Below, piece by piece: positions 21,585 to 64,000 of a DNA stretch of 64,000 bases. A model generated the notes under the pieces. The model made no database searches. It was given only the letters and a program-made list of their open reading frames with translations, and had not been told where the DNA came from. The DNA is from Chloroflexota bacterium (GTDB taxonomy: Bacteria > Chloroflexota > Anaerolineae > Anaerolineales > Anaerolineaceae): contig JAAYKH010000030.1 in the NCBI GenBank assembly GCA_012522475.1, positions 22,063 through 86,062 of the forward strand. The letters run 5' to 3'. The position numbers and the translations under genes are program-made. Position 1 is the first letter of the stretch, and the number at the start of each line of letters is the position of its first letter.

Positions 21585-22105
21585 CTTTTTCTTTTAATGG
21601 TCATTGAAGAGTTTTTTCAGTTTCTATTTAGAAGGAATTACACAAACACCATATCTGACTGTTTTTTTTATCTATTTTGTGCTATCATTAATTCTGGTAG
21701 AATTACAATACCCGATCAATTTGTTTTGAAAGTTCCTCCACCCCTGGCAACGCCGGCTGGGGGTGATTGTTTTAAGCAAGCCCTGGGATGTGTTTGAATT
21801 CTGCCACAAGGTATAATCATAACAGTCCAATAAATACCTGTTGCCATTATTAAACGCTAGAAGCAGTATCAATGAGGTTTTATTGGATGAAGTCAAATTC
21901 AATACCCGCGCTTTTACTGCAGATGGCAGCCTGGCGGAATGCCCACTGCTGAGGTCATCCTGCCCTTCCATCAATTCATCTTGCAGTTGAACAAGCGCTG
22001 AGCCCGACTGCCTGAAAAGCTGAAGCCACAACCAGCAAACACGCGTAAAGCTGCTGGTGGTAGCAAAGTTAAAATTTGTCGATAGGTTTGGAAAAGGAGA
22101 TCGGC

Positions 22106-40899: not shown

Positions 40900-42786
40900 C
40901 TAAGGTGTGAAGTTTTTGCCCAAAACCCTGGCCTCACCGCGGCGCATGGTAACCCCCATCTGATCCAAATATTCCAAAACAGCCACCGCATACTTGCGGC
41001 TGGTATCAAATTGATCTCTCAACTCCGCCAGGGTGATGCTTTCTTTTTGTTGAATTTGGCTGATCACAAATTGGCGCATCTCAGCCATAGCTTGGGGCAG
41101 GAATAGAATATCTTCGCCAATCCAAAGTAGTTTTCCTAACGAGATCAATGAAGTCAATAGCTCATCTCCGACAATATCTCGGCTCTGTTTGTACGAAGGG
41201 GGCGCATAGGCGTGGGCTTCAAAATCCTTTAACAGGTGCTCGATTTTTACTTCTTGTTCAACCGTAAAACGGATGCTGTGCTGGCTTAGCCACAAATCAG
41301 CGCCGGATTCAACCAGGATGCCCTCACCTGACAGGTGTGCCAGGAGGCTGTCGAAATCTCTGGCCGTTAAGCTCATCTGTGATTTAAGGCGCTCTCTCGG
41401 CATACCCTGCCTTAAGGGGTATTGCTGGTGATATTCATTTAATCTGGCGACCAGGTTTTCCCTGATCCGATCAAAACTCGCCCTCGTTAAGATCATGCGC
41501 CCACCCCTGATCAGAATCAACTCACCCCGGTCAATCAGTCCATCAACAGCCAATTGTGCCTGGTTTTGTTCCAACCCGCTGTTTGCCAAAAGATTCTGAA
41601 GCGAACTGGGCCCCAACTTCAGCGCCGTTTGCAGCAAAATATCTTCGGGTGTTCCCATCAATAAATGTTCTAATGCTTCTAAACGTTCTTGATTAAAGCG
41701 ACGATGTCGACGTGTGGGATGTGCATCCACAACCTGCCCCCCCCCAATGGTTGCAGGGGGAGATGGACGTCGCAGGATGAAACGATCACCGCGCAGTGCA
41801 ACGAGCGGTTTCTGCAGCATCAGTTGCAAAAAGGCTTCACCACCAGGGGGGCATTCCTGCATTCCCAGCACACGCACCCTGGCCATGACCTCAGCCGCAC
41901 CCAGGAAAAGCTTAACCTCCATATTGTGCTTCAACGGCGCGCTGGCATCTGGCAGTATTTTACAATACACGTCAATCATCTTGGTGGTCTGATAATCCCC
42001 TGGGTGAACGACCACATCGCCCCGGATGACCTCATCCACACTGACCCCGCTGATGTTGACCGCTGTTCGCCCTCCTGGCAGGGCTTTTTGTTCAGCCTGT
42101 TTATGCGTTTGCAATCCACGGATTCGACCTTTAATGCCGCGCGGTAAAATTTCAACTTCATCGCCAACGGATAGTTGCCCGTCAAGCAATGTCCCGGTCA
42201 AAATTGTGCCAAACCCTGGCAGCGTAAAGACCCGGTCTACCGGTAAGCGCGGGCGGCCCAAATCTAGACGGTGAGGATGTCGTTTGTTGACCTCTTGCAG
42301 AGAATTCACCAGGGTTTCGATCCCCTGGCCCGTCTTCGCACTGACCCTGATGATTGGCGCCTGCTCGAGAACAGTCCCTGACAGCACCACACGTAGATCT
42401 TCCTCCACCAGGTCAAGCCAATCCGTATCCTGGATCAAATCGATTTTTGTGAGTGCTACCACACCAGCAGGAATTTGAAGCAAGTTAACAATTGCCAAAT
42501 GTTCGCTGGTCTGCGGCATCACGCCTTCATCAGCAGCAACCACAAACAACACCGCATCAATTCCCCCAACGCCTGCCAGCATGTTTTCGATAAAATCACG
42601 ATGGCCCGGAACATCGACAATTCCTATTTCATTACCATCAGGCAGCGTGATCCAGGCAAAACCCAGCTCAATGCTCAATTCCCGGTCTTGCTCTTCTTTT
42701 AACCGATCCGGGTTAATCCCGGTTATCCGGTTGATGAGGCTCGATTTTCCATGATCAACATGGCCAGCGGTGCCTATAACCTGCAC
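40900..42786 (-). CDS. selB: Selenocysteine-specific elongation factor
   Basis: GTAGHVDHGKS, DRLKEEQDRELSIELGFA, DVPGHRDFIENMLAG; C-terminal winged helices ending TSRKYAVAVLEYLD. Confidence 0.95.
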   Translation of the reverse strand: MQVIGTAGHVDHGKSSLINRITGINPDRLKEEQDRELSIELGFAWITLPDGNEIGIVDVPGHRDFIENMLAGVGGIDAVLFVVAADEGVMPQTSEHLAIVNLLQIPAGVVALTKIDLIQDTDWLDLVEEDLRVVLSGTVLEQAPIIRVSAKTGQGIETLVNSLQEVNKRHPHRLDLGRPRLPVDRVFTLPGFGTILTGTLLDGQLSVGDEVEILPRGIKGRIRGLQTHKQAEQKALPGGRTAVNISGVSVDEVIRGDVVVHPGDYQTTKMIDVYCKILPDASAPLKHNMEVKLFLGAAEVMARVRVLGMQECPPGGEAFLQLMLQKPLVALRGDRFILRRPSPPATIGGGQVVDAHPTRRHRRFNQERLEALEHLLMGTPEDILLQTALKLGPSSLQNLLANSGLEQNQAQLAVDGLIDRGELILIRGGRMILTRASFDRIRENLVARLNEYHQQYPLRQGMPRERLKSQMSLTARDFDSLLAHLSGEGILVESGADLWLSQHSIRFTVEQEVKIEHLLKDFEAHAYAPPSYKQSRDIVGDELLTSLISLGKLLWIGEDILFLPQAMAEMRQFVISQIQQKESITLAELRDQFDTSRKYAVAVLEYLDQMGVTMRRGEARVLGKNFTP

Positions 42787-44134: not shown

Positions 44135-45550
44135 TTATTGTAAATGAGGGAAAGCAGTCAAGATATCGATTAATCCTGTAAAAAACTTACCCGGAAACAA
44201 GCCAAACGCCATTAATACAACCATCATTATGATGATCGGCGCATAGTGAGGAAGTTTTTCTTGAACATGCCAAATTTGATCATTTTCATTTTCACTTGGG
44301 TGGTAGAAGCTCAACAGCAGCCGAATTGAAAATAAAAATAAACCCAGGCTTCCAAAAAGGCTCCACACACCCAAACTGATGCTCTCAGATGCAGCCTGAG
44401 AGAGCAGAACAATTTTAATTGGGAAAGACGCCAAAAGTGGCAAGCCGGCAATACTCAGTTGAGCTAAAATTAATCCGGATGAAAGCCAAGGCGTCCTGCG
44501 TGCTGCACCTTGAATTGTTCCCAGACCGATTGAGGCGCCGTAATGAGTTTCGAGTCGAGCCAGGGTATAGCCCCATAACCAATACCCTAAAGCTCTTACC
44601 GGGAACATCATCAGCATCCAATGCAGGCCTCCCGAAGCGGCTAAACCAATAGCTAATAAAGAGTAACCCGTTTCAACCAGTATCGAAAACCCAAAGGCCC
44701 GTTTAAGCTCTTCCTGAACCGCAGTTGACACCCCGCCAAAAACAATCATCATCACACCGGTTAACCTGATGATATTAAAAATGGCTTCAGATGTTCTGAG
44801 AAATCCGTACCGATTGAGAAAATTTAATCCAAATACCAGAATGCCGGTAGGCAGAATAAACAATAAAAAACTAAATACCGTCGGATGACTGTGTTCGCTG
44901 ACCATAGGCACCCAGCTATGGAAAGGAAATACAGCCAGCCAGATAGCAAACCCAAGGCCTAAGACAACCGCACTTTGACCGATCAACGGGCTTTCAGGCG
45001 GCAGGGTAACCACCCCGGTTAACAACCATCCAGCAATCAGGATAAAGGGCATGGCAATGGTCATCAACCCAAGATAGCGCAAAACACCAGAGTGTTCACT
45101 TTTAACAGGGAACGTTATCATCGGAACAGAAACAAGAACTGCGGTTTCAATCAGCAAGGCAGCGTAAAGAAAGGGCTCAACGCCCAAAGCCGCTGTCAGA
45201 GCAGCAGTGATAATCAAGCTTGTCGGACGAAATGACTTTGGAACACTTTGGAGGTTGCTACTCAGCAACCACAAGCCCGTTGTCCCGTATAAAAAAGCAA
45301 CCATCGGAAGCATGGCAGACACCAAGGTGATTTTACGTCCAAAAAAGTTTAAACTTTCTTCTATGGAAATCGTCAACGGACCAAGCGAAAGGATCAGTTC
45401 CTGTGGTAAATAGGCTGCCAACAAAGCCAGTCCAAAAGTAAATACACAGGCAATAATCAGGCTTAATTGGCGGCGTTCAGCTGTAAGTGTGCAGACAACG
45501 GCTACCACCATGGGAACAATGACCCAGATGAGCGGCGTACTCAGCGTCAT
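44135..45550 (-). CDS. NuoN/MrpD-like proton-conducting membrane subunit (degenerate)
   Basis: FPFHSWVP, LKRAFGFSILVETG, SIAGLPLLASFPIK antiporter-fold motifs. Confidence 0.7.
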   Translation of the reverse strand: MTLSTPLIWVIVPMVVAVVCTLTAERRQLSLIIACVFTFGLALLAAYLPQELILSLGPLTISIEESLNFFGRKITLVSAMLPMVAFLYGTTGLWLLSSNLQSVPKSFRPTSLIITAALTAALGVEPFLYAALLIETAVLVSVPMITFPVKSEHSGVLRYLGLMTIAMPFILIAGWLLTGVVTLPPESPLIGQSAVVLGLGFAIWLAVFPFHSWVPMVSEHSHPTVFSFLLFILPTGILVFGLNFLNRYGFLRTSEAIFNIIRLTGVMMIVFGGVSTAVQEELKRAFGFSILVETGYSLLAIGLAASGGLHWMLMMFPVRALGYWLWGYTLARLETHYGASIGLGTIQGAARRTPWLSSGLILAQLSIAGLPLLASFPIKIVLLSQAASESISLGVWSLFGSLGLFLFSIRLLLSFYHPSENENDQIWHVQEKLPHYAPIIIMMVVLMAFGLFPGKFFTGLIDILTAFPHLQ

Positions 45551-46167
45551 TGCTGTTCTTCTTCCTGAATAACGCTGTCAGCTTCTTCGGCGGATACCAT
45601 CATAGACACACCTACAACTGCCATGCCTAGGGTTACAACAGCCAATAAGCCAGTTAATAATGTGGAAAGCTCCAAAGCAGCATAGATCACTTCAAAACCT
45701 GTCAGAAAGGTTAACAATCCGATAATAACTGGAAAAGGCTTTGAATTTAACCCCAATTGCATCAGTGCCATCCCCATCATAATCAATCCACCCTGGATGA
45801 TTAACAAATCAACATCAGGGAATACTCGGCGCTGCAAAGGGGGCGCTAAAATAAAAATCAGCACGATCATCAACAATCCAGATAACCCCTTAAAAAACAG
45901 GTTGGCAACATTTTCCGGCTGCAGCTCTTCCCGGCTGCAACGCAAACTGGTAAATACCATCACTGCCGTTGCCATCCATCCTGAAATTAATTTTACAATG
46001 GCCATATTAATCGGCCAGGAGAGTAAGACCAACACAAAAGCGCCTAAGTATTGAGCGCCTAAAGCTAGGGCAATAATACGCCAATCCCTGAAAATTAAAA
46101 CGATCATGACGGACAGCACAATTGCAATCAATGCCAATTTGGATATCACTTGCATCTTAGTTGACAC
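45547..46167 (-). CDS. Small multi-pass membrane protein (HyfE/NuoJK-like, tentative)
   Basis: About 6-7 TM helices; IIGLLTFLTGFE segment; coupled by overlaps to both neighbours. Confidence 0.45.
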   Translation of the reverse strand: MSTKMQVISKLALIAIVLSVMIVLIFRDWRIIALALGAQYLGAFVLVLLSWPINMAIVKLISGWMATAVMVFTSLRCSREELQPENVANLFFKGLSGLLMIVLIFILAPPLQRRVFPDVDLLIIQGGLIMMGMALMQLGLNSKPFPVIIGLLTFLTGFEVIYAALELSTLLTGLLAVVTLGMAVVGVSMMVSAEEADSVIQEEEQQ

Positions 46168-47779
46168 CCCCGCCCGTTAACAGGCTGATCAATAACGCCA
46201 AGGTTAACACCGTCCATAGGATGCCCCCCTCACCCTCAAAAATCGATGAGAACACCTTTAAAATCTGGCCGAAGAAATAATATAATTTCCAGGCCACCCA
46301 GTAAACCCACTCTAAACGGAATACCGGTTCAATACGTGGCAAGAGCCAGTCCGACACTTTTTTAATCGTGCTGTTGGCAGGTAACTGAAAATAGGGAGGG
46401 GAGATCCCAAAGCGTCGAGCAAGGATGAGCGCGGTTAGAATCAATATGTTACTAAGCAACGCCACCCACCAAACGCCCAAGGTGAACGCCCCTGGCCAGC
46501 CGAAGAAACCCAATATGATCATCGTTTGAAGAATCAGGATCAGTCCAATCGGGAAAACCACGCGCTCCCAGGGCTCTAGCACACCCGCTTCGACACCGGG
46601 TTTGAGTGCATGCTCCAGATAGCCCAAAACCATTAACCCGTGGACAATGATTAATAAAATTGTCCACAGCGTGAAACCGCCCCCAAGCAAACCAGACCAG
46701 CCCGAAGCGACCGGGGTAAAAGGCAGTCCCAAAAAACACAATGCACCAATCAGCAGTAAGAAATTAGTGGGTTGAATACGCGGATAATAAAGAAATAATA
46801 GACTGCCAGGCAAAATTAAAGCCATTCCCCAGGGAATACTGGACTGTGGCACCCCGTTCAACACCGACACCGTCGCAAAGCTCGACCAGGCGATAATCCA
46901 ATATTGCCGACCCTCTATCTCATTCACTGCTACCAACCAGCGAGAAGCTGCATAAATAGCTGCAAGCGTTAACAAGCCCGTTACCAAAGTTTTCCAATAA
47001 CCAGCCTCCGGCAAGAGCGCCTCGCCTGGTAAACGAGCCAGGAGCGTCAGGCTGGCTGCAACCGGTGTCAAACGCAAAACATTCCCGGCGCCTCTGCGTA
47101 AAACAGGCTCTCTGAGAAAGGGCAGGTTGAGGGGAATTACCCCCAGGCGCAATCCCGCTGCCATTAAGAAAATAAAGCCTGCAGGGTACGGCGCTTGTGC
47201 AAAATCGAAATTTCCATTAGCAGCCCATCCCAGCATGGTCCCTAAGAACAACAGCAAAATCGATGCCAAACGCACCCCGTAGGCAATGATGATCCGTTGG
47301 TTAAATTGTGTTGTTTCTTGAAGAGACAATAAAAGGAATAATTCCAGCAGGTCTACCAACACCCAGGCGGTCATCATGGTTAGGCTTGTACCTGATTGAA
47401 CGGCAAGCAACCCCAGCGCGATTATGACCAGGCTTGCAGCCCAAGCACGTGGTCTGCTATCAAAATGAGTGCGCGCGGCATCTGTGAAAACCATGGCCAA
47501 AAACACGGTGATCAATGCCAATGCATACGGCCAAGATTGATAGTCCAGTAACAGAGAAAGCTTTCCGACCTGGTTCAGGCTGGGGTGATCCCAGGAGAAT
47601 AAGGCTACGGTTGTGGGTAAGCGCAGCCTGGAGAAGATAATTATCATCCAGGCAAGAATGCCTGCTGTTACCGTAATCAACCAGCTTGTCCCGTATCGCG
47701 GATGAACCAGGTCCAATATAAAAACAGCCAGGCAGGCAATTAATAAAAATCCAATCGGGGCGAGGATTAACATAGCCAA
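46157..47779 (-). CDS. Highly divergent NuoL/M/N-like antiporter-fold membrane protein
   Basis: LSLLLDYQSW, AWVLVDLLE, AAGLRLGVIPL, LGLPFTP remnants of the antiporter fold. Confidence 0.5.
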   Translation of the reverse strand: MAMLILAPIGFLLIACLAVFILDLVHPRYGTSWLITVTAGILAWMIIIFSRLRLPTTVALFSWDHPSLNQVGKLSLLLDYQSWPYALALITVFLAMVFTDAARTHFDSRPRAWAASLVIIALGLLAVQSGTSLTMMTAWVLVDLLELFLLLSLQETTQFNQRIIIAYGVRLASILLLFLGTMLGWAANGNFDFAQAPYPAGFIFLMAAGLRLGVIPLNLPFLREPVLRRGAGNVLRLTPVAASLTLLARLPGEALLPEAGYWKTLVTGLLTLAAIYAASRWLVAVNEIEGRQYWIIAWSSFATVSVLNGVPQSSIPWGMALILPGSLLFLYYPRIQPTNFLLLIGALCFLGLPFTPVASGWSGLLGGGFTLWTILLIIVHGLMVLGYLEHALKPGVEAGVLEPWERVVFPIGLILILQTMIILGFFGWPGAFTLGVWWVALLSNILILTALILARRFGISPPYFQLPANSTIKKVSDWLLPRIEPVFRLEWVYWVAWKLYYFFGQILKVFSSIFEGEGGILWTVLTLALLISLLTGGGVN

Positions 47780-52308: not shown

Positions 52309-53259
52309 TTATTCTTTGCTGTCTGGTAGATCTTCAGGCGCTTCTGCTACAATGTACAACGGCCGGTTCTTAGCCTCGTCATAAATTCGCCCGATATATT
52401 CGCCAATGAAGCCCAAGCTGATCAACTGCACCCCGCCCAAAAACAGCACCATGACCACCGTCGTCGCCTGCCCTAGGAGGGCTGTGCCGGTGAGCAAACG
52501 CAGGGTAGCTACCACGGGAATCGCCAGAACGCTCAACCCTGCTGCAATAAAACCGATATAAGTAGCCATCTGAAGGGGAAAGTAAGAGAAGCCAGTAACG
52601 GCATTCAAAGCCAGTTTGAGCATCTTTTTGAAAGGATATTTGGTTTCACCGGCAACCCGCGATTGCCTTTTATAGCTAACCCCTACCTGTCTGAAGCCCA
52701 CCCAAGCTGACATTCCACGCAGGAAGCGGTGCTTTTCGCGCATTTGCTGCATCACCTGCACCACTTTTCGATCCATCAAGCGGAAATCGCCGGTATCTAA
52801 GGGGATTTCCACATCCGTGATGCGGTAGATGAGCCGATAAAACAACGCGGCTGTAGTGCTTTTGAACCAGGTTTCGCCTTCGCGCTCTTCGCGCACGGCA
52901 TATACAACCTCGTAACCTTCGCGCCATTTGGCAATTAAATCAAGAATCACCTCCGGCGGGTCTTGCAAATCGGCGTCGATAATGATCACCGCGTCACCGC
53001 GACAGTAATCGATACCGGCGGAGACCGCAATTTGGTGCCCAAAATTTCGAGCGAAGATCACCGGACGCACCCGCGGGTCGTTCTCGGCCAGTTTCCGCAT
53101 CAGCTCGGTAGAGCCATCTGTGGAACCATCATCGATCAGGATTAACTCCCAGGGTTCGCCAGTACTTTCCATAACACTCTTAACTCGCTGATACAGTTCA
53201 GGAATACTTTCCAGCTCGTTAAAAATGGGTGCAATAACAGTAAAGGTCGGCATGGTCAT
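52309..53259 (-). CDS. GT2 polyprenyl-phosphate glycosyltransferase (GtrB/YkoT-like)
   Basis: [39 protein letters not shown]; two C-terminal TM helices. Confidence 0.93.
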
Positions 53260-54503
53260 CTAAGCTCCTTTATGACTGCTTCAAGGGTTGGTTCAATGAT
53301 AGGCGCGGTAGGGACAGCCCGCATAACAGCGTTAACGTCTTTAAGTCCGCTGCCGGTATTAAGCACCAAGACTGGCTCATCGGGTTCAACAATTTTTTCA
53401 GCAACCGCTTTGACCAGGCCGGCATAAGCAGTTGACGCAGCGGGTTCGGCAAAGATACCAACTCGGCCCAGTTCAGCAATAGCCCCCAGAATAGCTTCAT
53501 CGGGAACAGTCAGGTAGGTACCGCCAGTTTCACACGCTGCTCGCACCGCCCGCACCCCGTCGCGCGGCAGGTCTACAGAGATGCTGTCCGCCAGGGTCGT
53601 CGAGCGGACAGCGCGAATCTCTTCATCGCCGCGCTGAAAAGCATTGGCGATGGCCGCTGAACCTGTAGATTGTACACCAATGATGCGCGGCATTCTTGCC
53701 ATCCAGCCCAGGGCCATCAGGTCTTTAAATCCCTTGTGTATGCCAGAAATGATATTGCCATCTCCTACGGGAATAAAGACAGCCAGGTTTTTACTATCCG
53801 CAGGCAAACGGCACATAACTTGTTCCCAAATTTCAAAGGCGGCGGTTTTTTTACCTTCAGCTGTGAAGGGATTAAACCCGGTATTGCGATTATACCAGCT
53901 CAGGGCTTGCGTTACTTCGATGCTCAAATCAAAAGCCTGGTCGTAATTCCCATCCACCAGCAAAACCCGGGCGCCAAAGCCAATCAACTGTGCAATTTTA
54001 GCGGGTGGGGCAGTTTTCGGGGCAAAAATAACCGCTTTTGTTCCTGACGCGGCTGCCATGCCTGCCAATGCTGAACCGGCATTGCCGGTTGAGGCAGCCA
54101 CGATAACCTCGGCGCCAATTTCAGCAGCGCGGGCCACCACAATGGCACTGGCCCGGTCTTTGAAGGAGGCGGTGGGGTTCGGGCTCTCGTCTTTAATCCA
54201 CAAACGTTGCAATCCCAGTTGTTGTGCCAGGCGAGCGGGCTTATAGACAGGTGTCCATCCAACCCGACGCAAGGGCGTTCCCAGGTTTCCCGGATCGCTC
54301 ACGGGTAATACATTTAAATAACGCCACAGCGATGCCTCTGGCAGATGCATGAAATTCTGAGTATTGTATTGGGCATTAATGGCTTTGTAATCAAGAATAA
54401 CATTCAGGTTCCCGCCATCCTTAGGGCAAGTGTAGGTCACCGCTTCAGGTTCATACTCAGCTCCGCATAAGGAACAGGTGAAATGTGAAAATTTATGTTT
54501 CAT
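53256..54503 (-). CDS. Threonine synthase-like fold-type II PLP enzyme
   Basis: N-terminal Zn ribbon CSLC..CPKD; GWTP; [14 protein letters not shown]; ASTGNAG; PVGDGN; EPAAS; NTGSGLK. Start trimmed to MKHKF. Confidence 0.88.
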
Positions 54504-54583
54504 TGGGTTCCCGGTTGTTATCTTTCGTTTCAATATAAGCTGCATGAGCTGTCACCGTAAAGTGACAACCCATGAATACGCCT

Positions 54584-55531
54584 TTAAGGAACAATCCATG
54601 TGCCAGTCTTGCCTTCAAGGGCATCGCTGATGTGTTTCGGATCAGTGATCAGGGCTTTCTTGCCGCCCTCTTCAAAGTATTTGATGACCGCCTGAATTTT
54701 CGGCAGCATACTACCCGAAGCAAAATGCCCGGCTTCAATATACTGTTTGGCCTCCCCAACGGTCATCCTATCCAGGAAAACCTGGTTTGGCTGATTGTAA
54801 TGTAAGGCAACTTTTTCTACAGCAGTGCTGATGATAAATAAATCTGCTTTGATATGAGACGCGATAATGGCTGCACTGAAGTCTTTGTCGATGACGGCTT
54901 CAATCCCCCTGATATAGCCGGCTTCGTCTTCAATGACGGGGATACCGCCACCGCCCACAGCAACCACAATGGTACCGGCGTGGATGAGTATGTCAATCAC
55001 GTTGGCTTCAACAATATGGGTTGGAAGTGGCGATGGCACCACCCGACGCCATCCACGGCCAGCATCTTCCACAACAGCCCAGCCTTCATTCCCAACCCGC
55101 CGTTTAGCTTCATCTTCATCCATAAAGGAGCCAATGGGCTTGGTGGGGTTCTGAAAGGCCGGGTCATTTCGATTGACAATCGTTTGAGTCACCACCGTTG
55201 CCACATCTTTTACCATGCCGCGTCGTTTAAATTCATTGTAAAGCGCGTTTTCGAACATATACCCAATCGCACCCTGGGTATCTGCGCCGCAGTAATCCAG
55301 TGGGACTTCATGCAGTTCGTGTGCAGCGAGCTCCGAGCGGCGCAAAATGAATCCGACCTGGGGACCATTACCATGTGTTACAACCACATCCCATCCCTTT
55401 TGAATCATGTCTACAATGTGTGTCATCGTGTCATTAGCAGCATTGTACTGATCCTGAACGGATTGATGGCTTTTATCTTTGATTAATGCATTGCCACCCA
55501 CGGCGATAACAGCAATACCTTGTCTTTCCAT
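54584..55531 (-). CDS. arcC: Carbamate kinase (YqeA/ArcC)
   Basis: AVGGNAL, THGNGPQVG, PTKPIG, GWRRVVPSP, GGGGIPV, EAVIDKD, GSMLPK. Confidence 0.95.
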   Translation of the reverse strand: MERQGIAVIAVGGNALIKDKSHQSVQDQYNAANDTMTHIVDMIQKGWDVVVTHGNGPQVGFILRRSELAAHELHEVPLDYCGADTQGAIGYMFENALYNEFKRRGMVKDVATVVTQTIVNRNDPAFQNPTKPIGSFMDEDEAKRRVGNEGWAVVEDAGRGWRRVVPSPLPTHIVEANVIDILIHAGTIVVAVGGGGIPVIEDEAGYIRGIEAVIDKDFSAAIIASHIKADLFIISTAVEKVALHYNQPNQVFLDRMTVGEAKQYIEAGHFASGSMLPKIQAVIKYFEEGGKKALITDPKHISDALEGKTGTWIVP

Positions 55532-55567
55532 ATGATGTTGTGTTCCTGTTCAATAATATTTTTTAAT

Positions 55568-56548
55568 TTAAGCCATCGTCAGAGCCATGACAGCTTTTTG
55601 CGCGTGCAGCCGGTTCTCTGCTTCGTCGAAGACCACAGACTGCGGCCCATACAGAACGCCATCCGTCACCTCGATATCGCGGTCGGCAGGCAAGGGATGC
55701 ATGTAAATGGCATCATCTTTAGCCAGGGCCATTTTCCGCTCATCAGTAATCCAGCTCTCATATTTGTTCGTCACCCGGGTAATTTCATCAGGGTCAGTGA
55801 CTTTCACCAGAGGACCCCAGGATTTAGCGTAAACTATATCTGCGTCTTTAAAACCCTCTTCCATGCTGTCGACAACATCAAAGCCGGTCTTGTACTTGCG
55901 GGCCTGTTCGAGTGCTTGGTCCATAATTTCAGGCATCAATTCAAACTCTGGTGGGTGAGCCAAAACTACATCCAAACCAAAACGGGGCATCTGCAGAATG
56001 AGGGATTGCGGAACAGAAATGGGTTTGGAGTATGAAGACGCGTACGCCCAGGAAACAACGATCTTCTTGCCACGCAAATTGCGGCCTTTCTTTTCCCAGA
56101 TGGTCATCAGGTCTGCTAAACACTGCGGGGGATGGTAGACATCACATTGCATGCTCAACAAGGGAACCCGTGCAGCTTCTGCCACCTGGTTGAGGTACTG
56201 GTTGCCAACGCCCCAATCGCAGTGACGAATCGCAATGCCGTCAAAAAAACGACCGAGGATCTCGCCAATCTCTCTCTCGGTATCGCCATGGGAGATTTGA
56301 GTGGTCTGCGATTCAATAAAAGCAGCATGGCCACCCAGTTGCGCCATACCCGCCTCGAAACTGCAGCGAGTGCGCGTGCTGGAAAAAAAGAACAATAAGC
56401 CTAGAACCTTATCGCGCAGATAAGCATGCGGTTGACCAAGAGCACGCTTCATCTTCAGGTCAAAAGCAACATCTAAAACAGTTTCGACTTCTTCTTTACT
56501 GAAGTCAAGGTCGCTGATTAAATCTCGTCCACGTAAGTTTGTGATCAT
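55568..56548 (-). CDS. ygeW: YgeW-type carbamoyltransferase
   Basis: SSTRTR, HPPQCLAD, WAYASSYSKPISVPQS (YgeW-type loop), YAKSW, MHPLP (not HCLP). Confidence 0.75.
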   Translation of the reverse strand: MITNLRGRDLISDLDFSKEEVETVLDVAFDLKMKRALGQPHAYLRDKVLGLLFFFSSTRTRCSFEAGMAQLGGHAAFIESQTTQISHGDTEREIGEILGRFFDGIAIRHCDWGVGNQYLNQVAEAARVPLLSMQCDVYHPPQCLADLMTIWEKKGRNLRGKKIVVSWAYASSYSKPISVPQSLILQMPRFGLDVVLAHPPEFELMPEIMDQALEQARKYKTGFDVVDSMEEGFKDADIVYAKSWGPLVKVTDPDEITRVTNKYESWITDERKMALAKDDAIYMHPLPADRDIEVTDGVLYGPQSVVFDEAENRLHAQKAVMALTMA

Positions 56549-56609
56549 TTAGGTCTCCTTATTATTTTAGTAAAATTCTCATAATCGTTTTTGAACTAAG
56601 TGTTGATTA

Positions 56610-57342
56610 TCAGGTCTGAAAATTGCCAATTTTTCTGACAACGCATAACTTGAAATATCCGGGAAGAAAATAGCTGTATGAGAAATCGACCGGGATACGC
56701 TCGGTATTAAACAGCACACCAGAAAGGAGCAGCAAAGTATCGCCCCGTCTAACGTCCAGCGCTTTGGCAATTTCTGGGGGCGCGTGGATTGCGCTGATTT
56801 CCGTCCTCGATTCCGACAGGCCCGGATTCAAAACCTGGTTTAACAAGTCCAGTATCGATCCCGTGAACTGCTCTTCGATTATCTCAAGCGCAATGACATG
56901 TTCCGGGAGGATATCGATCAAATACGCCACAGGCACACTTTCAGCCCTGATCACACGGTTAACCTTATAAATAGGTGCGGCCAACCTCAATTTGGAGTTT
57001 TTCGGCGTGAATCTCATCGGCACTCGATCGGGTGATATCTAAAGCGCCCATGGTCACATCAAGACCAATTTTCTTGGCCAGTGTTTCAATGCTTTCTAAT
57101 GCTTCAAGCCCGGTTTCAAAAATATGGGTCGGCTTAACAACAAAGGTTCCTAAACCCTGCCTGCGTCTTAGAAACCCCTGGCTTTCAAAGGTTCGCATCA
57201 CTTCGCGCAAAGTGGCCCGTGATACGCCTAAGTCGGCAGCAAGTTGGGGTTCTGAGGGCAGTTTCGTCCCTTTAGGAGCGTTTTCAATAATTTCCCTCAG
57301 GTCGTTTTGCAATCGGTGATATGTCGAAAGATCTGAATTCAT
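56610..57342 (-). pseudogene. GntR/HutC-type regulator (wHTH + UTRA) split by a one-base frameshift near 56980
   Basis: KLPSEPQLAADLGVSRATLRE HTH in one frame and UTRA (APIYKVNRV...PVAYLID) in another. Deleting one G at 56979-80 restores EVG-APIYK. Confidence 0.85.
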
Positions 57343-57414
57343 ATTTTTGTGCAGCAGCAATTTAAAAACAATGGTCTTTCAGTGGTTTTGCTAAGCCATC
57401 CTTAACTATTTAGA

Positions 57415-58632
57415 TTATTGTGATTTTTCATTAATCAAATGGCTGATCAGGGCATAAAATTCAGTGGCCTTGACCACATCATCCAAATTCACACTATCCA
57501 TATTGGTGTGGGCAGTTTCTTCATCGCCAGGCCCAAAGCCAATCGATGGAATTCCGGCTTTCCCAGCCCAATAGATGCCATTGGTGGAAAAATTCCATTT
57601 GTCTGCGGGAGCATCCTCTAACCCAATCAAGGTGCGAGTTTCAAGGCCCGCTTGAACAAGATAATGATCTTCGTCTAAAGCCCAAGCAGGGAAGTATTTA
57701 TCAACCGGGAACACAAAACCTGTATAGGATGGTTCATCGTAAAAGAGTTCTTCAAGCGCGATCGCGTCGGAAAGTTCTAGGGGTATCAACGCCTGGATTT
57801 GGGCATAAGCTTCTTCTTTTGTTTCGCCGAAGGTTAATCGTCGGTCGATATAGATCACCGCTTCATCGGGAACGGCATTGATGGACGGTGTTTTAACAAC
57901 CATATCCGATACGGTAATTTTTCCATGTCCCAAAAATTCGTCATCCCCTAATTCAGGTTCAAGGTCTCGGATGCCCGCAATGATGGGCAACAATTGGTAA
58001 ATCGCGTTGACCCCCAGGTGGTTCGAAGCGGCATGTGCCGAACGACCTTTAGAGGTGATCTTTAACTCAACCCGGCCTTTATGCCCACGGTAAACCAGCA
58101 TTTTGGTGGGTTCCCCGATGATAGCATAATCTGGTTTCACACCGGGGTCTACTTCCACAAAGGTGTTCGGGGCAATTCCATCACACCATTCTTCCATGTT
58201 GCCAAAGTAATAAGCAGTCCAGCCATCCAATAATCCTAAATCTCGGGCAATGGCCATGCCGTAAACCATACCCGGTGTAGACCCCTTCTCATCACAAGCG
58301 CCGCGGGCAAAAAGAACCCCATCTTCGACTTTTCCGACAAATGGATCCCATCCCCATGATTCAGGGTCGCCAATTCCAACCGTATCGATATGTGAATCAA
58401 ACACGATTACGCGTTCGCCATCCCCAATGCGCCCCAGGATATTGCCCATCTTATCAAAACGGACTTCATCGAATTTTAATCTCCTCATTTCCTCGGCAAT
58501 GCGTTCGCCGACCGGGCCAATCTGAGATTCCATGCTGGGAATAGCAACGATGTCCCTTAGAAACTGGAGGATTTCCGCCCGTTGCTCTTCGACCTTACTT
58601 TGGATTTTACTGACAATTGTCGAGTCAACCAT
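57415..58632 (-). CDS. ygeY: YgeY family M20 hydrolase
   Basis: FDSHIDTVG, GRG-like ARGACDEKG, MEEWCDG, GEPT..VYRGHKGR, FSTNG, GFGPGDE. Confidence 0.88.
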   Translation of the reverse strand: MVDSTIVSKIQSKVEEQRAEILQFLRDIVAIPSMESQIGPVGERIAEEMRRLKFDEVRFDKMGNILGRIGDGERVIVFDSHIDTVGIGDPESWGWDPFVGKVEDGVLFARGACDEKGSTPGMVYGMAIARDLGLLDGWTAYYFGNMEEWCDGIAPNTFVEVDPGVKPDYAIIGEPTKMLVYRGHKGRVELKITSKGRSAHAASNHLGVNAIYQLLPIIAGIRDLEPELGDDEFLGHGKITVSDMVVKTPSINAVPDEAVIYIDRRLTFGETKEEAYAQIQALIPLELSDAIALEELFYDEPSYTGFVFPVDKYFPAWALDEDHYLVQAGLETRTLIGLEDAPADKWNFSTNGIYWAGKAGIPSIGFGPGDEETAHTNMDSVNLDDVVKATEFYALISHLINEKSQ

Positions 58633-58711
58633 TTTAACTATTTCTCCTTTATAGTTTTTTATTTTACAAAACAGGAACCCTATATTAACAAGTCATCATA
58701 CAAATGCTCGA

Positions 58712-60100
58712 TCAATCTCCGGTTAATAAACGTTTCGCAGCCTGGTTGTGTTTCTTCACCAAAGTCGGAACGTTAACGGTCATCAATTCGCCATCTTTGA
58801 CGATTATTTTTCCGCCGACAATGTTGATGTCCACCTTTTGAGGGGCACAGAACAAAGCCGCGGCCACAGGGTCGTGTAGGGCGCCGGCATAATCCAGGCG
58901 GTCGAGGTTAATGGCAAACAAGTCGGCACACTTTCCTACCGCCAGCGAGCCAATATCCTCCCGCCCCAGCACGGCAGCCCCTCCCCGGGTGGCAATTTCA
59001 AGCGCTTGCCGGGCAGTCATCAGCGGCGGCGCATCCTCACCAGACCTTGAAGCGCCCCCCAGCCCGGCGTTTAATCGGGCCAGCAACATTGCCAGGCGTG
59101 CCTCACCTAAAAGGTGAGAACTATCGTTGCTGGATGAACCATCCACCCCCAATCCAACCTTGACGCCCCTGGTCAACATTTCCAAAATAGGCGCAATTCC
59201 CGAAGCCAGGCGCATATTGGAACCGGGGCAGTGGGCCACACCACAACCTGTGTCGGCATATAACTGAATCTCTGCATCGTTCACATGCACACTGTGCGCA
59301 AACCACACATCCTCACCAATCCAGCCGACCTCCTGCATATAAGCCACCGGGCGGTGCCCGAATTTTTCAATACAGAAGTCCTCTTCATCCTGGGTTTCTG
59401 CCAGGTGCGTGTGTAAATGCACCCCGTATTCACGCGCCAGCAAAGCCGATTGTCGCATCAATTCGCCAGTCACACTGAAGGGTGAACAGGGCGCCAGCAC
59501 AACTTGCACCATGGAACCCGGTGAAGGGTCATGGTAGGTTTCAATCAAACGCTGGCTGTCTTTGAGGATATCCTCCTCCGAATCCACCACGCTATCCGGC
59601 GGCAGCCCCCCGGCAGATTCACCCAGGCTCATCGAACCGCGTGAGGCGTGCAAGCGCAAACCGATCTCAGCCGCCCCCATAATTTGGTCATCCAGCCGGG
59701 AGCCATTTGGAAACAGGTAAAGGTGGTCAGACGCCGTCGTACAGCCTGAAAACGCCAGTTCGGCCAGTGCCGTTTGGGTTGAGATGAAAATATCTTCCGG
59801 CCCCATCCGGGCCCAGATCGGGTACAAAGTTACCAGCCAGTTGAACAGGTTGGCATTTTGAGCCTTGGGCACAGCCCGGGTCAACGTTTGATAGAAATGG
59901 TGATGCGTGTTAACAAAGCCCGGAAAAACAATATGCCCGCAGAGATCGAGATCTTCGTCGACCTCTGCGGGCATATCCGTTAATGCGCCAATCGCTTGAA
60001 TGAAACCATCCTTTATGTAAAGGTTGGTGTTTTGCAGCTCCTGGCGTTGGTCATCCATCGTGACCAAGATTTCAATATTTTTTATTCTTAAGGTTGACAT
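58712..60100 (-). CDS. 8-oxoguanine deaminase / SsnA-AtzB family amidohydrolase
   Basis: PGFVNTHHHFYQTLTR, SDHLY, RGSMS, PCSPFSV, HTHLAET, WFAHSVH, HCPGSNMRLASG, GVDGSSSND. Confidence 0.88.
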   Translation of the reverse strand: MSTLRIKNIEILVTMDDQRQELQNTNLYIKDGFIQAIGALTDMPAEVDEDLDLCGHIVFPGFVNTHHHFYQTLTRAVPKAQNANLFNWLVTLYPIWARMGPEDIFISTQTALAELAFSGCTTASDHLYLFPNGSRLDDQIMGAAEIGLRLHASRGSMSLGESAGGLPPDSVVDSEEDILKDSQRLIETYHDPSPGSMVQVVLAPCSPFSVTGELMRQSALLAREYGVHLHTHLAETQDEEDFCIEKFGHRPVAYMQEVGWIGEDVWFAHSVHVNDAEIQLYADTGCGVAHCPGSNMRLASGIAPILEMLTRGVKVGLGVDGSSSNDSSHLLGEARLAMLLARLNAGLGGASRSGEDAPPLMTARQALEIATRGGAAVLGREDIGSLAVGKCADLFAINLDRLDYAGALHDPVAAALFCAPQKVDINIVGGKIIVKDGELMTVNVPTLVKKHNQAAKRLLTGD

Positions 60101-60235
60101 AAGCATCCATCTTTTTTAGTGAGTTAGCTAGATATTTAGTCAACCTAATTTTATCGAAAGAACGTGTTATCGTCAATTGTCTGACAAATTTAAAAATGCA
60201 CAACCCTTGATTCTTTAAGGGTGCAACGCCCCCGG

Positions 60236-61981
60236 TTACGAGCCGCAATATATATTTTGTTTAATTGTCTCAATGGCCTCATCAACCGACATAACCCAGC
60301 GCTCATCTTGTGTACGCCGCTTGAATTCAAAGCCCCCTCCCGTCAGCGAACGATCAGAGATGGTCACGCGCAACGGAATGCCAATCAGATCCGCATCATT
60401 GAACTTGACACCGGCGCGTTCATTCCGATCATCATACAACGGTTCCAATCCAGATTTAATTAATGCTTGGTAGAAGGTCTCAGCTTCTTTTTCTACAGAG
60501 CCGTCCTTGCTCCCCAATACCACCAGGTGTACCGGGTACGGCGTTATCGAGTCAGGCCAGATCAAACCCTGCGAATCGTGGTGTTCTTCGGCCACACAGG
60601 CCATCAATCTGCCCACATCGATCCCATAAGACCCCATGAGGATTGAGTGAGGTTGCCCGGCCTCATCCAGGTATGAGGCCCCCACGGCATCAGTATAACA
60701 GCTACCCAATTTGAAAATATTGCCCACTGTAACACCACATTGGGCCTTCAGCCGCCCCCCGCAATGCGGGCAGTGCGCGCCGTCCTCAGCCATAACAATA
60801 TCCGCGACAATGTCCGCCTGGTAATCCCGTCCCAGGTTGGTATTGCATAAGTGGTAACCTGGCTCATTCGCCCCGGCTACCAGGTTGGGCGCCCTTAAAA
60901 GCAAGTCATCAGCTACAACCCAGACTTTTTCACGCTCAATGCCAACCGGTGAGCCATATCCCGGACTGGCGCCAATGGCTGCAATTTCAACATCTGTCGC
61001 CGGCACCAGGTTTATAACGTTACCCTTTCCAGCTGCACTTAACGCGTTGCTCAATTTAGTTTCATTTAAGGTCATATCGCCCCGTAAGACGGCAAACACC
61101 ATACGGGGTGAGGGGTCTTCAGCCACTTCTGCCATTAAAAAGATCGCTTTCGCAGTTTTCGCCGGAGAAATACCCAGGTAAGCCGCCAACTCAGCAATCG
61201 TAGACGCCCCGGGCGTGGCAACTTTTTCCAGTGGTTGCAGCTCCTCAACCTCCGGATCAGGTTTTCTAAAAACAGCCACCTGGCGATTGGCTGCGTAATC
61301 ACATTGTGTGCAAAACAACAACGTCTCTTCGCCCCCAGGCGTCAGGTAGATATATTCGTGTGCCTCCAGCCCTCCCATCCTGCCCGCATCCGCCCCCACC
61401 GCCCTGACAGGTAAACCACAGCGATTAAAGATACGGAAGTAAGCTTCGTAATGTGCTTGGTATTGGCGATCCAACCCCTCTCGGTCGCGGTCCAGGCTGT
61501 AGCTGTCCAGCGTGGTAAATTCCCGAGCTCGAATCAACCCCGCCCGCGGTCGGGAATCATCCCTGAATTTGTCCTGAATGTGATAGAGCAGCTGGGGCAG
61601 CTGCCGGTATGATTGAATCTCTCGCCGTGTCAGGTGAGCCACCGCAGCCTCGAAAGCTGCAGCCAAAACCATGTCATGGTCGCTGCGATCTTTAAACCGA
61701 ACTGTCACATCATCCATTTGGCTCAGGCGGCTACCCTGCTGCCCGATATCCGCCGGCTGTACCAACGGCATTTTGAGTTCCTGGCCCCCAATCGCCGCCA
61801 TTTCCTCGCGCATGATGTTTTCAATGCGGGTCAACACCCGCTGAGCCCGAGGTAAATGGGCATAGATACCCGGCGCCAACGGGCGAATAAAACCTGCTCT
61901 GAGCAATAATTGATGGCTGGCGATCTCCACTTCGGAAGGCGCATCGCGCAGGGTTGTCCCGAACAGCTTCGACATGCGCAT
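60236..61981 (-). CDS. Prolyl-tRNA synthetase paralog (type IIa with INS editing domain), aminoacylation motifs degenerate
   Basis: Overall ProS architecture, but THEE->AFEA, WxESGRW->GQQGSRL, MKD->TLD, GxEVG->GVTVG, GIGxxR->GIDVGR. Confidence 0.85.
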   Translation of the reverse strand: MRMSKLFGTTLRDAPSEVEIASHQLLLRAGFIRPLAPGIYAHLPRAQRVLTRIENIMREEMAAIGGQELKMPLVQPADIGQQGSRLSQMDDVTVRFKDRSDHDMVLAAAFEAAVAHLTRREIQSYRQLPQLLYHIQDKFRDDSRPRAGLIRAREFTTLDSYSLDRDREGLDRQYQAHYEAYFRIFNRCGLPVRAVGADAGRMGGLEAHEYIYLTPGGEETLLFCTQCDYAANRQVAVFRKPDPEVEELQPLEKVATPGASTIAELAAYLGISPAKTAKAIFLMAEVAEDPSPRMVFAVLRGDMTLNETKLSNALSAAGKGNVINLVPATDVEIAAIGASPGYGSPVGIEREKVWVVADDLLLRAPNLVAGANEPGYHLCNTNLGRDYQADIVADIVMAEDGAHCPHCGGRLKAQCGVTVGNIFKLGSCYTDAVGASYLDEAGQPHSILMGSYGIDVGRLMACVAEEHHDSQGLIWPDSITPYPVHLVVLGSKDGSVEKEAETFYQALIKSGLEPLYDDRNERAGVKFNDADLIGIPLRVTISDRSLTGGGFEFKRRTQDERWVMSVDEAIETIKQNIYCGS

Positions 61982-61984
61982 TGT

Positions 61985-62455
61985 CTATTCCATCTCCTGG
62001 CGACCGTTTTCTTCGGCTGGCTGTTCCAGTTTATCAGGTTCATCGCCGGGTAAATCAGAAAGATCAATCTTTTCTTCCATGGTCACCTTGCCCCGCAAAA
62101 AAGCACCCTCATTAGTGGAAATTGATTGAATAATCACATCACCATACACCCGTCCGGTGGCACGAATTTCTAATTTTTCCGCGACAATCTGTCCGCTTAC
62201 CGACCCCGCCACAATCACCGTCCCCGCTTTAAGCACCTTGCAGGTCACCCTGCCAGTCTCACCAATTGTGACCAATCCGCGCACAGCAACTTCGCCTTCC
62301 AAGGCACCTTCAATGCGAACACCGCCTTTTCCGCGCAGATCACCTTTCCAGCTGATACCAGGCCCCAGTACCGAGGTCACCCGTTCAACCGGCTTGATTG
62401 AGGAAACGTCAGGAGTAGATTTCTTTTTTGCAAACATACGCTCACTGCCTTTCAT
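61985..62455 (-). CDS. Bactofilin (polymer-forming cytoskeletal protein)
   Basis: SVLGPGISWKGDL..GGVRIEG..V.I.ETGRV..VIVAGSVSGQI..LEIRATGRVYGDV. Start is 62455 or 62437. Confidence 0.92.
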   Translation of the reverse strand: MKGSERMFAKKKSTPDVSSIKPVERVTSVLGPGISWKGDLRGKGGVRIEGALEGEVAVRGLVTIGETGRVTCKVLKAGTVIVAGSVSGQIVAEKLEIRATGRVYGDVIIQSISTNEGAFLRGKVTMEEKIDLSDLPGDEPDKLEQPAEENGRQEME

Positions 62456-62501
62456 GGTAGATGCGTTTATTTTGTTGTTAACCAAGATTTCGAAAGCTGG
62501 T

Positions 62502-63614
62502 TCAGCGCCTTGGCGGCCAGATCGTTCCAGCAGGAACAATTCCGTCCTCGGGCACATCTGCTTTGACAGTTGCCCCGTTGCCAATGCGCGCCCGTTCGCC
62601 TATACGCACATTCAGGTTGACCGTGGCACGCATGCCAACCAGGGCTGCTTCGCCCACCTTCACACCGCCAGCCAGGGTTGCCCCCGGCGAAAGGTTGACA
62701 AAAGGCGCCAACTCACAATCATGTGAGATAATCACGCCAGTATTGATCAGGCAGCCAAAACCAACCCGAACCCTGATCCCAATGTACGCCAAGGGGAAAA
62801 CCTGAATACCATCATCCAGAACCGCGCTTTCTTCTAAAAAAGCGGTGCGGTGAACCACCGTGGGGCAATGGAAACCCGTTTCTGCCAAGCGTTCATACAC
62901 CTGCAAACGGGCTGGTAAATCGCTGATCCCACCCACACCATTTACCGCCAGGCGAACCCCATCCTGAGTCAGTTTACTCAGTTTTTCTCCCCCCCCTAAC
63001 ACGGACAACCCATCGATCTGCATGCCCGGCTGTAAGCCATCATCCAGGAAGCCAAGCAGCTCGTAATTTCCGGAATGGCGTATCAGGGCAGCTAATGAAC
63101 TGCCATGCCCACCTCCACCGTAAATCACCAGCCGTTTTTCTCCTTCCGGGATGGCTGCTCTGGCTGCCGGTTGATCCGCAGAAATAAGCGCCAGAACCAT
63201 TTCTCGGGTTACCAGAACACCCTGCGGTAACCCTTCCAGCGTCAGGCCCTTCGCCAGGGCTAATTCATGCGCCGGCTCGGTGATGCGTAAACCCGGCAGT
63301 GAGGGTTGTCCCCCGCCTTCTCTAAACAGGACATCTGCCCAGGGTGGCAGAGATGGGTCTTTGGCGTCAGGCGCAGCACCAATGTACCCCAGCACATCGC
63401 CTGCCTGCAAAGTGTCGCCTTCTTCATACAGCATCCCCACGAGATAACCGCTGGATTCTGCTCGAATTTCACCGGTAGATTTGGTTGTTTCGATCACTGC
63501 AACCATCTCTCCCCGGGTTATCACCGCTCCTTCTTTGACCGCCAGCGAAACAAGCAGGGCTTCTGGTTCGTTGGGGTTTACCAACGGGATTTTGATCGGG
63601 ATCAGTTTATCCAT
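62502..63614 (-). CDS. Fusion: lipoyl domain + E3/E1-binding (PSBD)-like segment + PglD/NeuD sugar acyltransferase
   Basis: VIETTKSTGEI lipoyl motif; RITEPAHELA..KGL..VTREMV PSBD-like; LVIYGGGGHG Rossmann domain; hexapeptide repeats with INTGVIISHDC. Confidence 0.85.
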   Translation of the reverse strand: MDKLIPIKIPLVNPNEPEALLVSLAVKEGAVITRGEMVAVIETTKSTGEIRAESSGYLVGMLYEEGDTLQAGDVLGYIGAAPDAKDPSLPPWADVLFREGGGQPSLPGLRITEPAHELALAKGLTLEGLPQGVLVTREMVLALISADQPAARAAIPEGEKRLVIYGGGGHGSSLAALIRHSGNYELLGFLDDGLQPGMQIDGLSVLGGGEKLSKLTQDGVRLAVNGVGGISDLPARLQVYERLAETGFHCPTVVHRTAFLEESAVLDDGIQVFPLAYIGIRVRVGFGCLINTGVIISHDCELAPFVNLSPGATLAGGVKVGEAALVGMRATVNLNVRIGERARIGNGATVKADVPEDGIVPAGTIWPPRR

Positions 63615-64000
63615 GATGAAACACCATTTCTCTTACTCGGGCAATGATATCTTCGTCACCGGGCAGGGATGCCAATTCAAGGTCAGGCGCCACAGGGATT
63701 ACACCCTCCCTGGCGGCCAGGCGTCCCGCTTGTTTTAAGTTTGTCCCCAGTTCCTCTGCCGTTCGTGCGACCACCTCCGCACCCCAACCCAATGAGAAAG
63801 TGCCTTCCTCAACCGTGAGCAAGCGGCCTGTGCACCTCACAGAGTCGAACACTTCCTTCAATTCAAAGGGCGCCAGCTGGGTAGGTACCAACAATTCACA
63901 GAAAATTTCCATTTCATAAGCCAGTTTGCGCATCGCACCAAGCGCCAAATGAGCCATATAGCCATAAGCTGCCAGGGTCAGTGTTGCTTGTGGCGCTGAT
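63607..64000 (-). CDS. 2-oxoacid dehydrogenase E1 beta / transketolase C-terminal domain (5' end outside window)
   Basis: Frame open to the window end: ATLTLAAYGYM...TGRLLTVEEG..GWGAEV..RLAA..IPVA..LE..LP. Confidence 0.85.
   Translation of the reverse strand, partial: SAPQATLTLAAYGYMAHLALGAMRKLAYEMEIFCELLVPTQLAPFELKEVFDSVRCTGRLLTVEEGTFSLGWGAEVVARTAEELGTNLKQAGRLAAREGVIPVAPDLELASLPGDEDIIARVREMVFHHG

Follow-up and report, generated by a model that had tools for sequence, protein, structure and literature searches.

The gene at 60236..61981 (minus strand) of a 64,000-nucleotide stretch of Anaerolineaceae DNA from contig JAAYKH010000030.1, referred to here as the window, encodes a 581-residue protein built like a bacterial-type (P-type) prolyl-tRNA synthetase (ProRS), with a degenerate synthetic site next to editing and anticodon-binding domains that keep their conserved residues. 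On the strength of the comparisons below, we lean towards the view that this protein is an editing-only ProRS, a 'ProRS-ed' candidate, which would have arisen by degeneration of the ancestral proS of a Brevefilum-lineage bacterium and would deacylate Ala-tRNAPro in trans.

The open reading frame (ORF) has no internal stop over its 581 codons. Its product contains the Pfam domains tRNA-synt_2b, tRNA_edit (PF04073), which is inserted in the core, and HGTP_anticodon. It scores 618.6 bits against NCBIfam NF006625, the equivalog model of bacterial ProRS (cutoff 558), and 516.9 bits against TIGR00409 (cutoff 306.7). The closest sequence in the PDB is the ProRS of Enterococcus faecalis (2j3l, E = 3e-130), which aligns end to end. 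An AlphaFold2 (AF2) model of the protein has a mean predicted local distance difference test score (pLDDT) of 77, rising to about 90-94 in the INS editing domain, and a Foldseek search with this model gave 2j3l, 2j3m, 5znj, and 8w8j as the top matches, with template modelling (TM) scores of 0.63-0.71. Thus, judged by its architecture, the protein is a P-type ProRS.

The motifs were compared with those of the 118 closest database proteins, which come from Brevefilum and other Anaerolineales, are 66-75% identical to the query, and are annotated as proline--tRNA ligase. Canonical motifs are present in all 118; only the query and P0001, a metagenome protein 98% identical to it, depart from them. 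The motif lesions listed in a preliminary description of this DNA, together with the retained KTAK, GYGSP, and GANEPGYH motifs, were seen again in this alignment. A wider set of 234 canonical P-type ProRS proteins from Anaerolineae defined 201 near-invariant columns (at least 98% invariant). The query deviates at 22 of these, whereas the 234 canonical proteins deviate at 0.77 columns on average and at 6 at most. The deviations are found at 19 of 98 columns in the N-terminal part of the catalytic core, 1 of 49 in INS, 2 of 29 in the C-terminal part of the core, and none of 25 in the anticodon-binding domain (ABD). The catalytic core as a whole thus has 21 changes in 127 columns and INS plus ABD has 1 in 74 (Fisher p = 6e-4).

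The lesions fall in the parts of the core that make up the synthetic site (all features of the gene are on the minus strand). The N-terminal part of the core (residues 1-225, 61307..61981) holds motifs 1 and 2, the class IIa TXE loop, and the proline-binding loop. Its W-loop (codons 79-86, 61724..61747) reads IGQQGSRL in place of the (V/I/L)WQETGRW of relatives, with the changes W80G, T83G, and W86L. The TXE loop (codons 108-112, 61646..61660) is A-A-F-E-A rather than M-T-H-E-E (LAAAFEAA vs LAMTHEEV); the first Glu remains, but the Thr is gone. The end of motif 2 has Thr for Met at codon 157 (61511..61513; REFTTLD vs REFTMLD). The change at this site had been described as MKD to TLD; the Met to Thr replacement is indeed specific to the query, but the Lys to Leu replacement is not, as relatives carry either MLD or MKD. 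The proline-binding loop (codons 197-201, 61379..61393) has S197A and M201R. In the C-terminal part of the core (residues 406-475, 60557..60766), which holds the GxExG strand and motif 3, Glu is replaced by Thr at codon 418 (60728..60730; GVTVG vs GVEVG), a position that is Glu in 232 of the 234 relatives, and Gly by Asp at codon 455 of motif 3 (60617..60619; GIDVGR vs GIGVGR). Motif 2 retains FRDD...REF, and its D142 in place of Glu is typical of the lineage.

In recent structures of the ProRS MtbProRS, Thr111 of the TXE loop hydrogen bonds to the proline amino group, Met159 lines the ribose pocket, Glu422 contacts the ribose and coordinates a metal on the alpha-phosphate, and Gly459 of motif 3 contacts the ribose (PMC13629369). 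The lesions of the query map onto all four residues, with codon 418 at Glu422 and codon 455 at Gly459. With the TXE Thr, Glu-418, and the motif-3 Gly all replaced, the earlier view that the synthetic site has been dismantled holds, and the protein is predicted to be unable to make Pro-AMP.

The INS domain (residues 226-405, 60767..61306) has a single changed column, A343G. Its PF04073 match (65 bits, residues 256-383) lies between motifs 2 and 3. The INS lysine is codon 278 (61148..61150; KTAK, in TAKAIF), aligned with the lysine of IIKSVLF in the E. faecalis enzyme. The GXXXP loop (codons 341-345, 60947..60961) is G-Y-G-S-P, where relatives have G-Y-A-S-P, and GANEPGYH (codons 370-377, 60851..60874) contains the conserved His-377. 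Lys-278, GXXXP, and GANEPGYH all align with columns that are invariant in the 234 relatives. From the alignment, we take Lys-278 to be the equivalent of Escherichia coli K279, and the INS catalytic-site Lys, GXXXP loop, and His to be those of E. coli K279, GXXXP, and H369. The ABD (residues 476-581, 60239..60556; HGTP_anticodon, 64 bits) has no changed column. As judged from these alignments, the INS editing site and the ABD keep their conserved residues in the query, as the preliminary description had proposed. The INS domain hydrolyses Ala-tRNAPro; it does not itself distinguish between tRNAs but relies on the ProRS anticodon domain, which reads G35/G36, and full-length ProRS deacylates pre-formed Ala-tRNAPro given in trans (PMC3973320, PMC11295145). 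Organisms whose ProRS is without INS use the trans-editor ProXp-ala (PMC3973320, PMC11295145).

The order of genes around the query is E1beta-like, lipoyl-hexapeptide acyltransferase, bactofilin, proS, 8-oxoguanine-deaminase-like, YgeY, GntR, OTC, and amino-acid kinase (AAK). Fifteen or more related genomes of Brevefilum and other Anaerolineaceae share this order, and the proS in that slot is canonical there. Because the gene occupies this syntenic slot, it is, as far as gene order and sequence tell, the ancestral proS degenerated in place and not the paralog that had been supposed. The bactofilin gene (61985..62584, minus strand) ends 3 bp upstream of the ATG of the ProRS-like gene, which is preceded by GGAG at 12 nucleotides. 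The 3-bp gap noted earlier is therefore real, but it has no bearing on function: the bactofilin-proS adjacency is kept in genomes with a canonical proS, so that it is ancestral synteny and uninformative about a new role. Two further neighbors are of interest in their own right. The gene at 62502-63614(-) fuses a biotin/lipoyl-attachment domain to a PglD/NeuD-type hexapeptide acyltransferase, which is an unusual fusion. It is preceded by a gene at 63607-63957(-) with a match to the transketolase C-terminal domain, here called E1beta-like, and this pair is kept upstream of bactofilin-proS across Anaerolineaceae.

The degeneration is confined to one branch and one part of the protein. In the closest relative the neighboring proteins are 83-92% identical to those of the window, while the ProRS-like protein is only 74% identical. 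The relatives recovered in scans of genome and metagenome contigs did not exceed 75% identity, and these scans yielded no forms intermediate between them and the query. Exact copies of the ProRS-like, deaminase, and YgeY proteins of the window were sought as well, and two short metagenome contigs were all that came up. In Tajima relative-rate tests, the query branch has changed 2.3-10 times as much as its sister in the N-terminal part of the catalytic core (p 5e-3 to 6e-8) and 3-5.5 times as much in the C-terminal part; the ratios for INS (0.8-2.0) and ABD (1.4-2.3) are not significant. The excess change thus belongs to the query branch and is limited to the catalytic core.

The same lesions are found in independent assemblies. 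An anaerobic-digester contig in ENA (L001) is 99.7% identical in nucleotide sequence over 7.8 kb and carries them, and Logan contigs from about 20 runs of many studies, on digesters, bioreactors, and wastewater, hold sequence of the species. The four runs that were compared show no indels, and their lesion codons match those of the window except for strain variants at codons 86 and 109. Among the variants listed for four metagenomes, which were read from contigs that hide rare alleles, at least 19 variant codons are synonymous and at least 11 nonsynonymous, giving a ratio of nonsynonymous to synonymous polymorphism (pN/pS) of 0.18 (binomial p = 4e-6 against neutrality). By domain, this ratio is 0.24 for the N-terminal part of the catalytic core, 0.11 for INS, and 0.09 for ABD. 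The whole ORF is under purifying selection, and the earlier statement that it is selected and free of stops and frameshifts is upheld by this ratio and by the lack of indels in the four runs. Codon 86 is Leu, or the ancestral Trp in the strain of run X4; codons 109 and 113 are Ala or Val, codon 116 is His or Tyr, and codon 415 is Cys or Tyr, depending on the strain. Such polymorphism at former active-site codons is what relaxed constraint on those residues, within a fold that is still constrained, predicts.

A screen of 161 Anaerolineae loci with P-type genes gave a second degenerate protein (L153:10001-11749). A homolog search with this protein brought out a clade, called clade 2 here, that comprises P0241-P0244 and P0246 (loci L165-L168; one of the metagenome-assembled genomes is GCA_053491195.1). 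The five are different proteins with a mutual identity of 72-92%, deposited as 'proline--tRNA ligase'. In all five, the TXE, W-loop, proline-binding-loop, and motif-3 residues are altered, the equivalent of position 418 is Val or Ala, and the INS lysine, GXXXP, and GANExxH are retained. Three of the five have also lost the universal class II motif-2 Arg, to Met or Gln. The changed near-invariant columns are distributed much as in the query, with 13-24 of 98 in the N-terminal part of the core, 0-1 of 49 in INS, 4-8 of 29 in the C-terminal part, and 0 of 25 in ABD. Over INS and ABD, clade 2 shares 54-58% identity with the query and 67-70% with its own canonical relatives, and the query shares 73-76% with the Brevefilum proteins. 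These identities group each lineage with its own canonical relatives, and the two states are therefore of independent origin; by this sequence grouping, the loss of the synthetic site arose at least twice in Anaerolineae.

Selection was also measured by codon analysis within clade 2, where synonymous divergence (dS) is 0.2-0.5 and unsaturated. In canonical pairs the core is more conserved than INS plus ABD (for example, 86 vs 79%), whereas within clade 2 this order is mostly reversed (84 vs 92%). The overall ratio of nonsynonymous to synonymous divergence (dN/dS) is 0.14-0.16 in clade 2 and 0.085-0.12 in canonical pairs. For the catalytic core the values are 0.12-0.25 and 0.05-0.13, for INS 0.11-0.15 and 0.08-0.24, and for ABD 0.04-0.07 and 0.11-0.22, respectively. 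From this pattern, the dead-site state is long-lived and selected. Of the 22 changed positions of the query, 14 are also changed in clade 2, and at nine of the 14 one or more members carry the very same replacement (Q34P, W80G, W86L, G90D, M93T, M108A, T109A, M157T, and D219E). The replacement V152A also recurs, in the query, P0244, and P0246. All of the parallel replacements are single-nucleotide steps, and they may reflect either drift or selection. An otherwise canonical P-type ProRS of the Brevefilum clade (L093:9998-11773, Ga0272443_10003968) has E418K as its sole lesion; it may represent an early stage on the same path, or the change may be an error.

If the P-type enzyme does not charge tRNAPro, which enzyme does? 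A eukaryote/archaeon-type (E-type) ProRS, identified by its TIGR00408 match and with core, anticodon, and ProRS-C domains and no editing domain, is widespread in Anaerolineae (for example, L058:11835-13289, L163/L164:3001-4443, and L169:10001-11443), often beside the P-type gene. In L058, L163/L164, and L169-L172 the E-type gene adjoins the canonical P-type proS or is one gene away from it; in these loci and in L122, L147, and L034 it is found directly downstream, with a gap of 131 nucleotides or one ClC-channel gene between the two. Dual ProRS seems to be common in Anaerolineae. A sister Brevefilum that is abundant in three metagenomes has a canonical P-type gene, whose contig reaches depths of 639, 44, and 77 there. 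A single E-type contig is present in these samples at depths of 505, 36, and 58, giving ratios of E-type to P-type of 0.79, 0.82, and 0.75. The ratio is steady at 0.75-0.82 over a 15-fold range of depth, and this covariance suggests that the genus Brevefilum carries both types. For the window species, no E-type contig could be assigned among the many low-depth Anaerolineae contigs in its runs, and an exact match to the E-type peptide reconstructed for the abundant Brevefilum was found in none of 120 matches. In runs X1 and X3, where the window species is present at a depth of only about 4x, no canonical proS of the Brevefilum type was found at 80% nucleotide identity or more, which at such a depth is a weak negative.

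Taking these results together, we suggest that an E-type ProRS took over charging and that the P-type enzyme may have been retained for proofreading only. The activation site would have drifted or been shut. The anticodon domain would bind tRNAPro through G35/G36, the catalytic core would serve only as a dimeric scaffold linking the anticodon domain to INS, and INS would hydrolyse Ala-tRNAPro made by a separate ProRS without editing, most likely an E-type enzyme. In this proposal INS would need both the anticodon domain and the core scaffold to find tRNAPro, and for this reason both would have persisted. Among the roles that had been offered for the protein, tRNAPro-specific trans-editing appears to fit best with a loss that is domain-specific and leaves INS and ABD in place.

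Several observations weigh against this proposal. A profile search of the six-frame ORFs of the window found neither a further ProRS nor any other synthetase of class IIa, and the depth covariance comes from a sister species and three samples only. The motif-2 Arg-140, Phe-155, and motif-3 Arg-458 are kept, and given these the query may bind some nucleotide. AF2 confidence is low in parts of the catalytic core, which, for a monomer model from a shallow alignment, we do not take as disorder. Support for expression is weak: one 'METAGENOMIC RNA-Seq' run holds the gene, with coverage that is even and DNA-like, and we count it as ambiguous and not as proof of transcription. Finally, L001 has a stop at codon 75 (Q75stop), which lies inside a strongly divergent end of the contig; over L001:1-100, aligned with window positions 61699-61798 (codons 64-94), 14 of 100 nucleotides differ, including Q75stop and L86M, against 10 differences in the other 7.7 kb. 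The Logan contigs of runs X1 and X3 break nearby, at 61656-61727. The divergent stretch is either a strain-hypervariable region or a chimeric contig end. This odd end is the only sign of a sequencing or assembly artefact, the read error that the preliminary description had allowed for, and such an error is ruled out as the source of the lesions by their presence in L001 and in Logan contigs of separate studies.

A different reading is that the gene is a young pseudogene, redundant and recently non-functional, that has yet to acquire a stop or frameshift. The degenerate state of the query is found in one species-level lineage whose next relatives are at 75% identity, its nonsynonymous variants cluster near motif 3, L001 has the stop at its contig end, and assemblies break in the W-loop/TXE stretch, all of which would suit a gene in decay. 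Neutral decay, however, would strike INS and ABD equally with the core, and it has not; the low pN/pS and the absence of indels in several strains, and about 25% amino-acid divergence without a stop or frameshift in 581 codons, are also hard to reconcile with it, and clade 2 has kept the same architecture through speciation at a dN/dS of 0.14-0.16. We therefore consider a pseudogene rather improbable. Much less probable still is that the protein is a working ProRS with an unorthodox active site, perhaps the only one of the cell. The score above the NCBIfam equivalog cutoff, the presence of the motif-2 and motif-3 Arg, and the lack of a second ProRS in the window are in its favor, but the TXE Thr, the metal- and ribose-binding Glu, and the motif-3 Gly that it has lost are at positions invariant or nearly so in 234 relatives, former active-site positions vary between strains, and clade 2, with the same lesions, loses the universal motif-2 Arg as well.

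A remodelled pocket deserves somewhat more attention, although we regard it as unlikely. Here the protein would bind another ligand or substrate, or act as a regulator or sequestering factor that binds tRNAPro, instead of or besides being a deacylase. In its favor, the motif-2 Arg, Phe-155, and the motif-3 Arg are retained, the core is under purifying selection (the pN/pS of 0.24 in the query and dN/dS of 0.12-0.25 in clade 2), and identical replacements are shared with clade 2 at nine of 14 positions, with V152A recurring besides. The polymorphism of codons 86, 109, 113, 116, and 415 within the species and the differences among clade-2 members look more like drift than like the fixation of a new pocket, the parallel changes are all single-nucleotide steps, and the motif-2 Arg is gone in three members of clade 2. 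A related idea, which we put forward only tentatively and hold to be doubtful, is that the old pocket was adaptively remodelled and that the parallel Q34P, W80G, W86L, M108A, T109A, V152A, M157T, and D219E are traces of selection towards some novel property. One candidate is active closure of the aminoacylation site, by which the tRNA 3' end would go only to INS; another is the binding of a new ligand, which would make the protein a sensor or an enzyme acting on another substrate. If true, adaptive remodelling would make the 'ProRS-ed' proteins, full length and guided by the anticodon, a new class that is recurrent and selected, and not a set of relics.

How does the proposed editing-only ProRS compare with known systems? 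With canonical P-type ProRS (E. faecalis 2J3L and E. coli) the query shares the three-part architecture and fold (39% identity, TM 0.69-0.71), the proS genomic slot of its relatives, the INS Lys, GXXXP, and His, and the anticodon domain, and it differs in the replacement of the TXE Thr, the GxExG Glu, the motif-3 Gly, both W-loop Trp, and residues of the proline-binding loop. In Crenarchaeota, ThrRS is split into ThrRS-cat for aminoacylation and ThrRS-ed for trans-editing (PMC3592468, PMC11295145), and this split is the closest functional precedent. As proposed for the query, synthesis and proofreading are divided between two synthetase-derived genes, and the editing partner keeps the anticodon-binding domain. 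The query, in contrast, is bacterial, belongs to another synthetase family, and has an editing fold of the INS/YbaK superfamily rather than the ThrRS editing domain; its state is a recent, repeated, in-place decay of a full-length enzyme, and the partner in its genome is only presumed. The query resembles ProXp-ala (PrdX) in the proposed hydrolysis of Ala-tRNAPro in trans, in the homologous PF04073 domain, and in the presumed setting of a ProRS without INS. However, ProXp-ala is a single domain that reads G72/A73 of the acceptor stem, whereas the query has 581 residues and three ProRS domains and would read the anticodon through its ABD. All members of the INS superfamily except INS itself are single-domain proteins, according to a 2024 review (PMC11295145).

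In Bacillus thuringiensis, a P-type (BtProRS1) and an E-type ProRS (BtProRS2) coexist and are both active (PMC11229370). The query presumably started from a coexistence of this kind, which is also seen in the tandem Anaerolineae loci. It differs from B. thuringiensis in that its P-type copy is now without a synthetic site, and from the tandem loci in that the motifs of the P-type copy there are still canonical. For ProRS, reviews of duplicated synthetases have ProRSx as their sole entry. The ProRSx of Streptomyces is a noncanonical yet active duplicate with a new tRNA, unlike the editing-only query. A pairing of this kind with a special tRNA is disfavored here, as tRNA and Rfam scans of the window found a tRNA-Asn (21512-21585) as its only RNA gene and no special tRNAPro. 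HisZ is a catalytically inactive HisRS paralog that acts as a regulatory subunit and has no editing domain. Like the query, ProRSx and HisZ are derived from aminoacyl-tRNA synthetases and have departed from the standard role, but neither of them is a ProRS of full length that only edits. Our literature search found no full-length ProRS described as catalytically dead.

Other parts of the window were also noted. A selenium-linked cluster with SelB is located at 40900-42786 and 53256-60106(-). It also contains a YgeY-family hydrolase, an 8-oxoguanine-deaminase/SsnA-like amidohydrolase, a GntR regulator, an OTC-like carbamoyltransferase, an amino-acid (carbamate-type) kinase, and a pyridoxal phosphate enzyme, and it resembles a purine-catabolism neighborhood of the ygeW-ygeX-ygeY type. 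Two stretches, at 11847-15788 and 44135-47779, have a strong positive AT skew of 0.17-0.25 and contain long ORFs without Pfam matches (11847-13859, 14097-15788, and 46157-47779). A single-chain pyruvate:ferredoxin oxidoreductase of 1197 residues is encoded at 24531-28124(-), which is consistent with an anaerobic fermenter.

If the proposal of an editing-only ProRS is correct, a bacterial synthetase would have been turned in place, at least two times independently, into a dedicated proofreader after a second synthetase took over charging, an outcome for which the crenarchaeal ThrRS-cat/ThrRS-ed split is an ancient parallel. The lineages would then be a natural experiment on INS, in which the ABD and the core scaffold outlast catalysis, matching the borrowing of tRNA specificity by INS from the anticodon domain. 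They are also a trap for annotation, since the degenerate proteins score above the curated cutoffs for ProRS and enter databases under the name 'proline--tRNA ligase'. In these lineages, inferences about the translation apparatus, the logic of marker genes, and the choice of targets for ProRS inhibitors would be misled.

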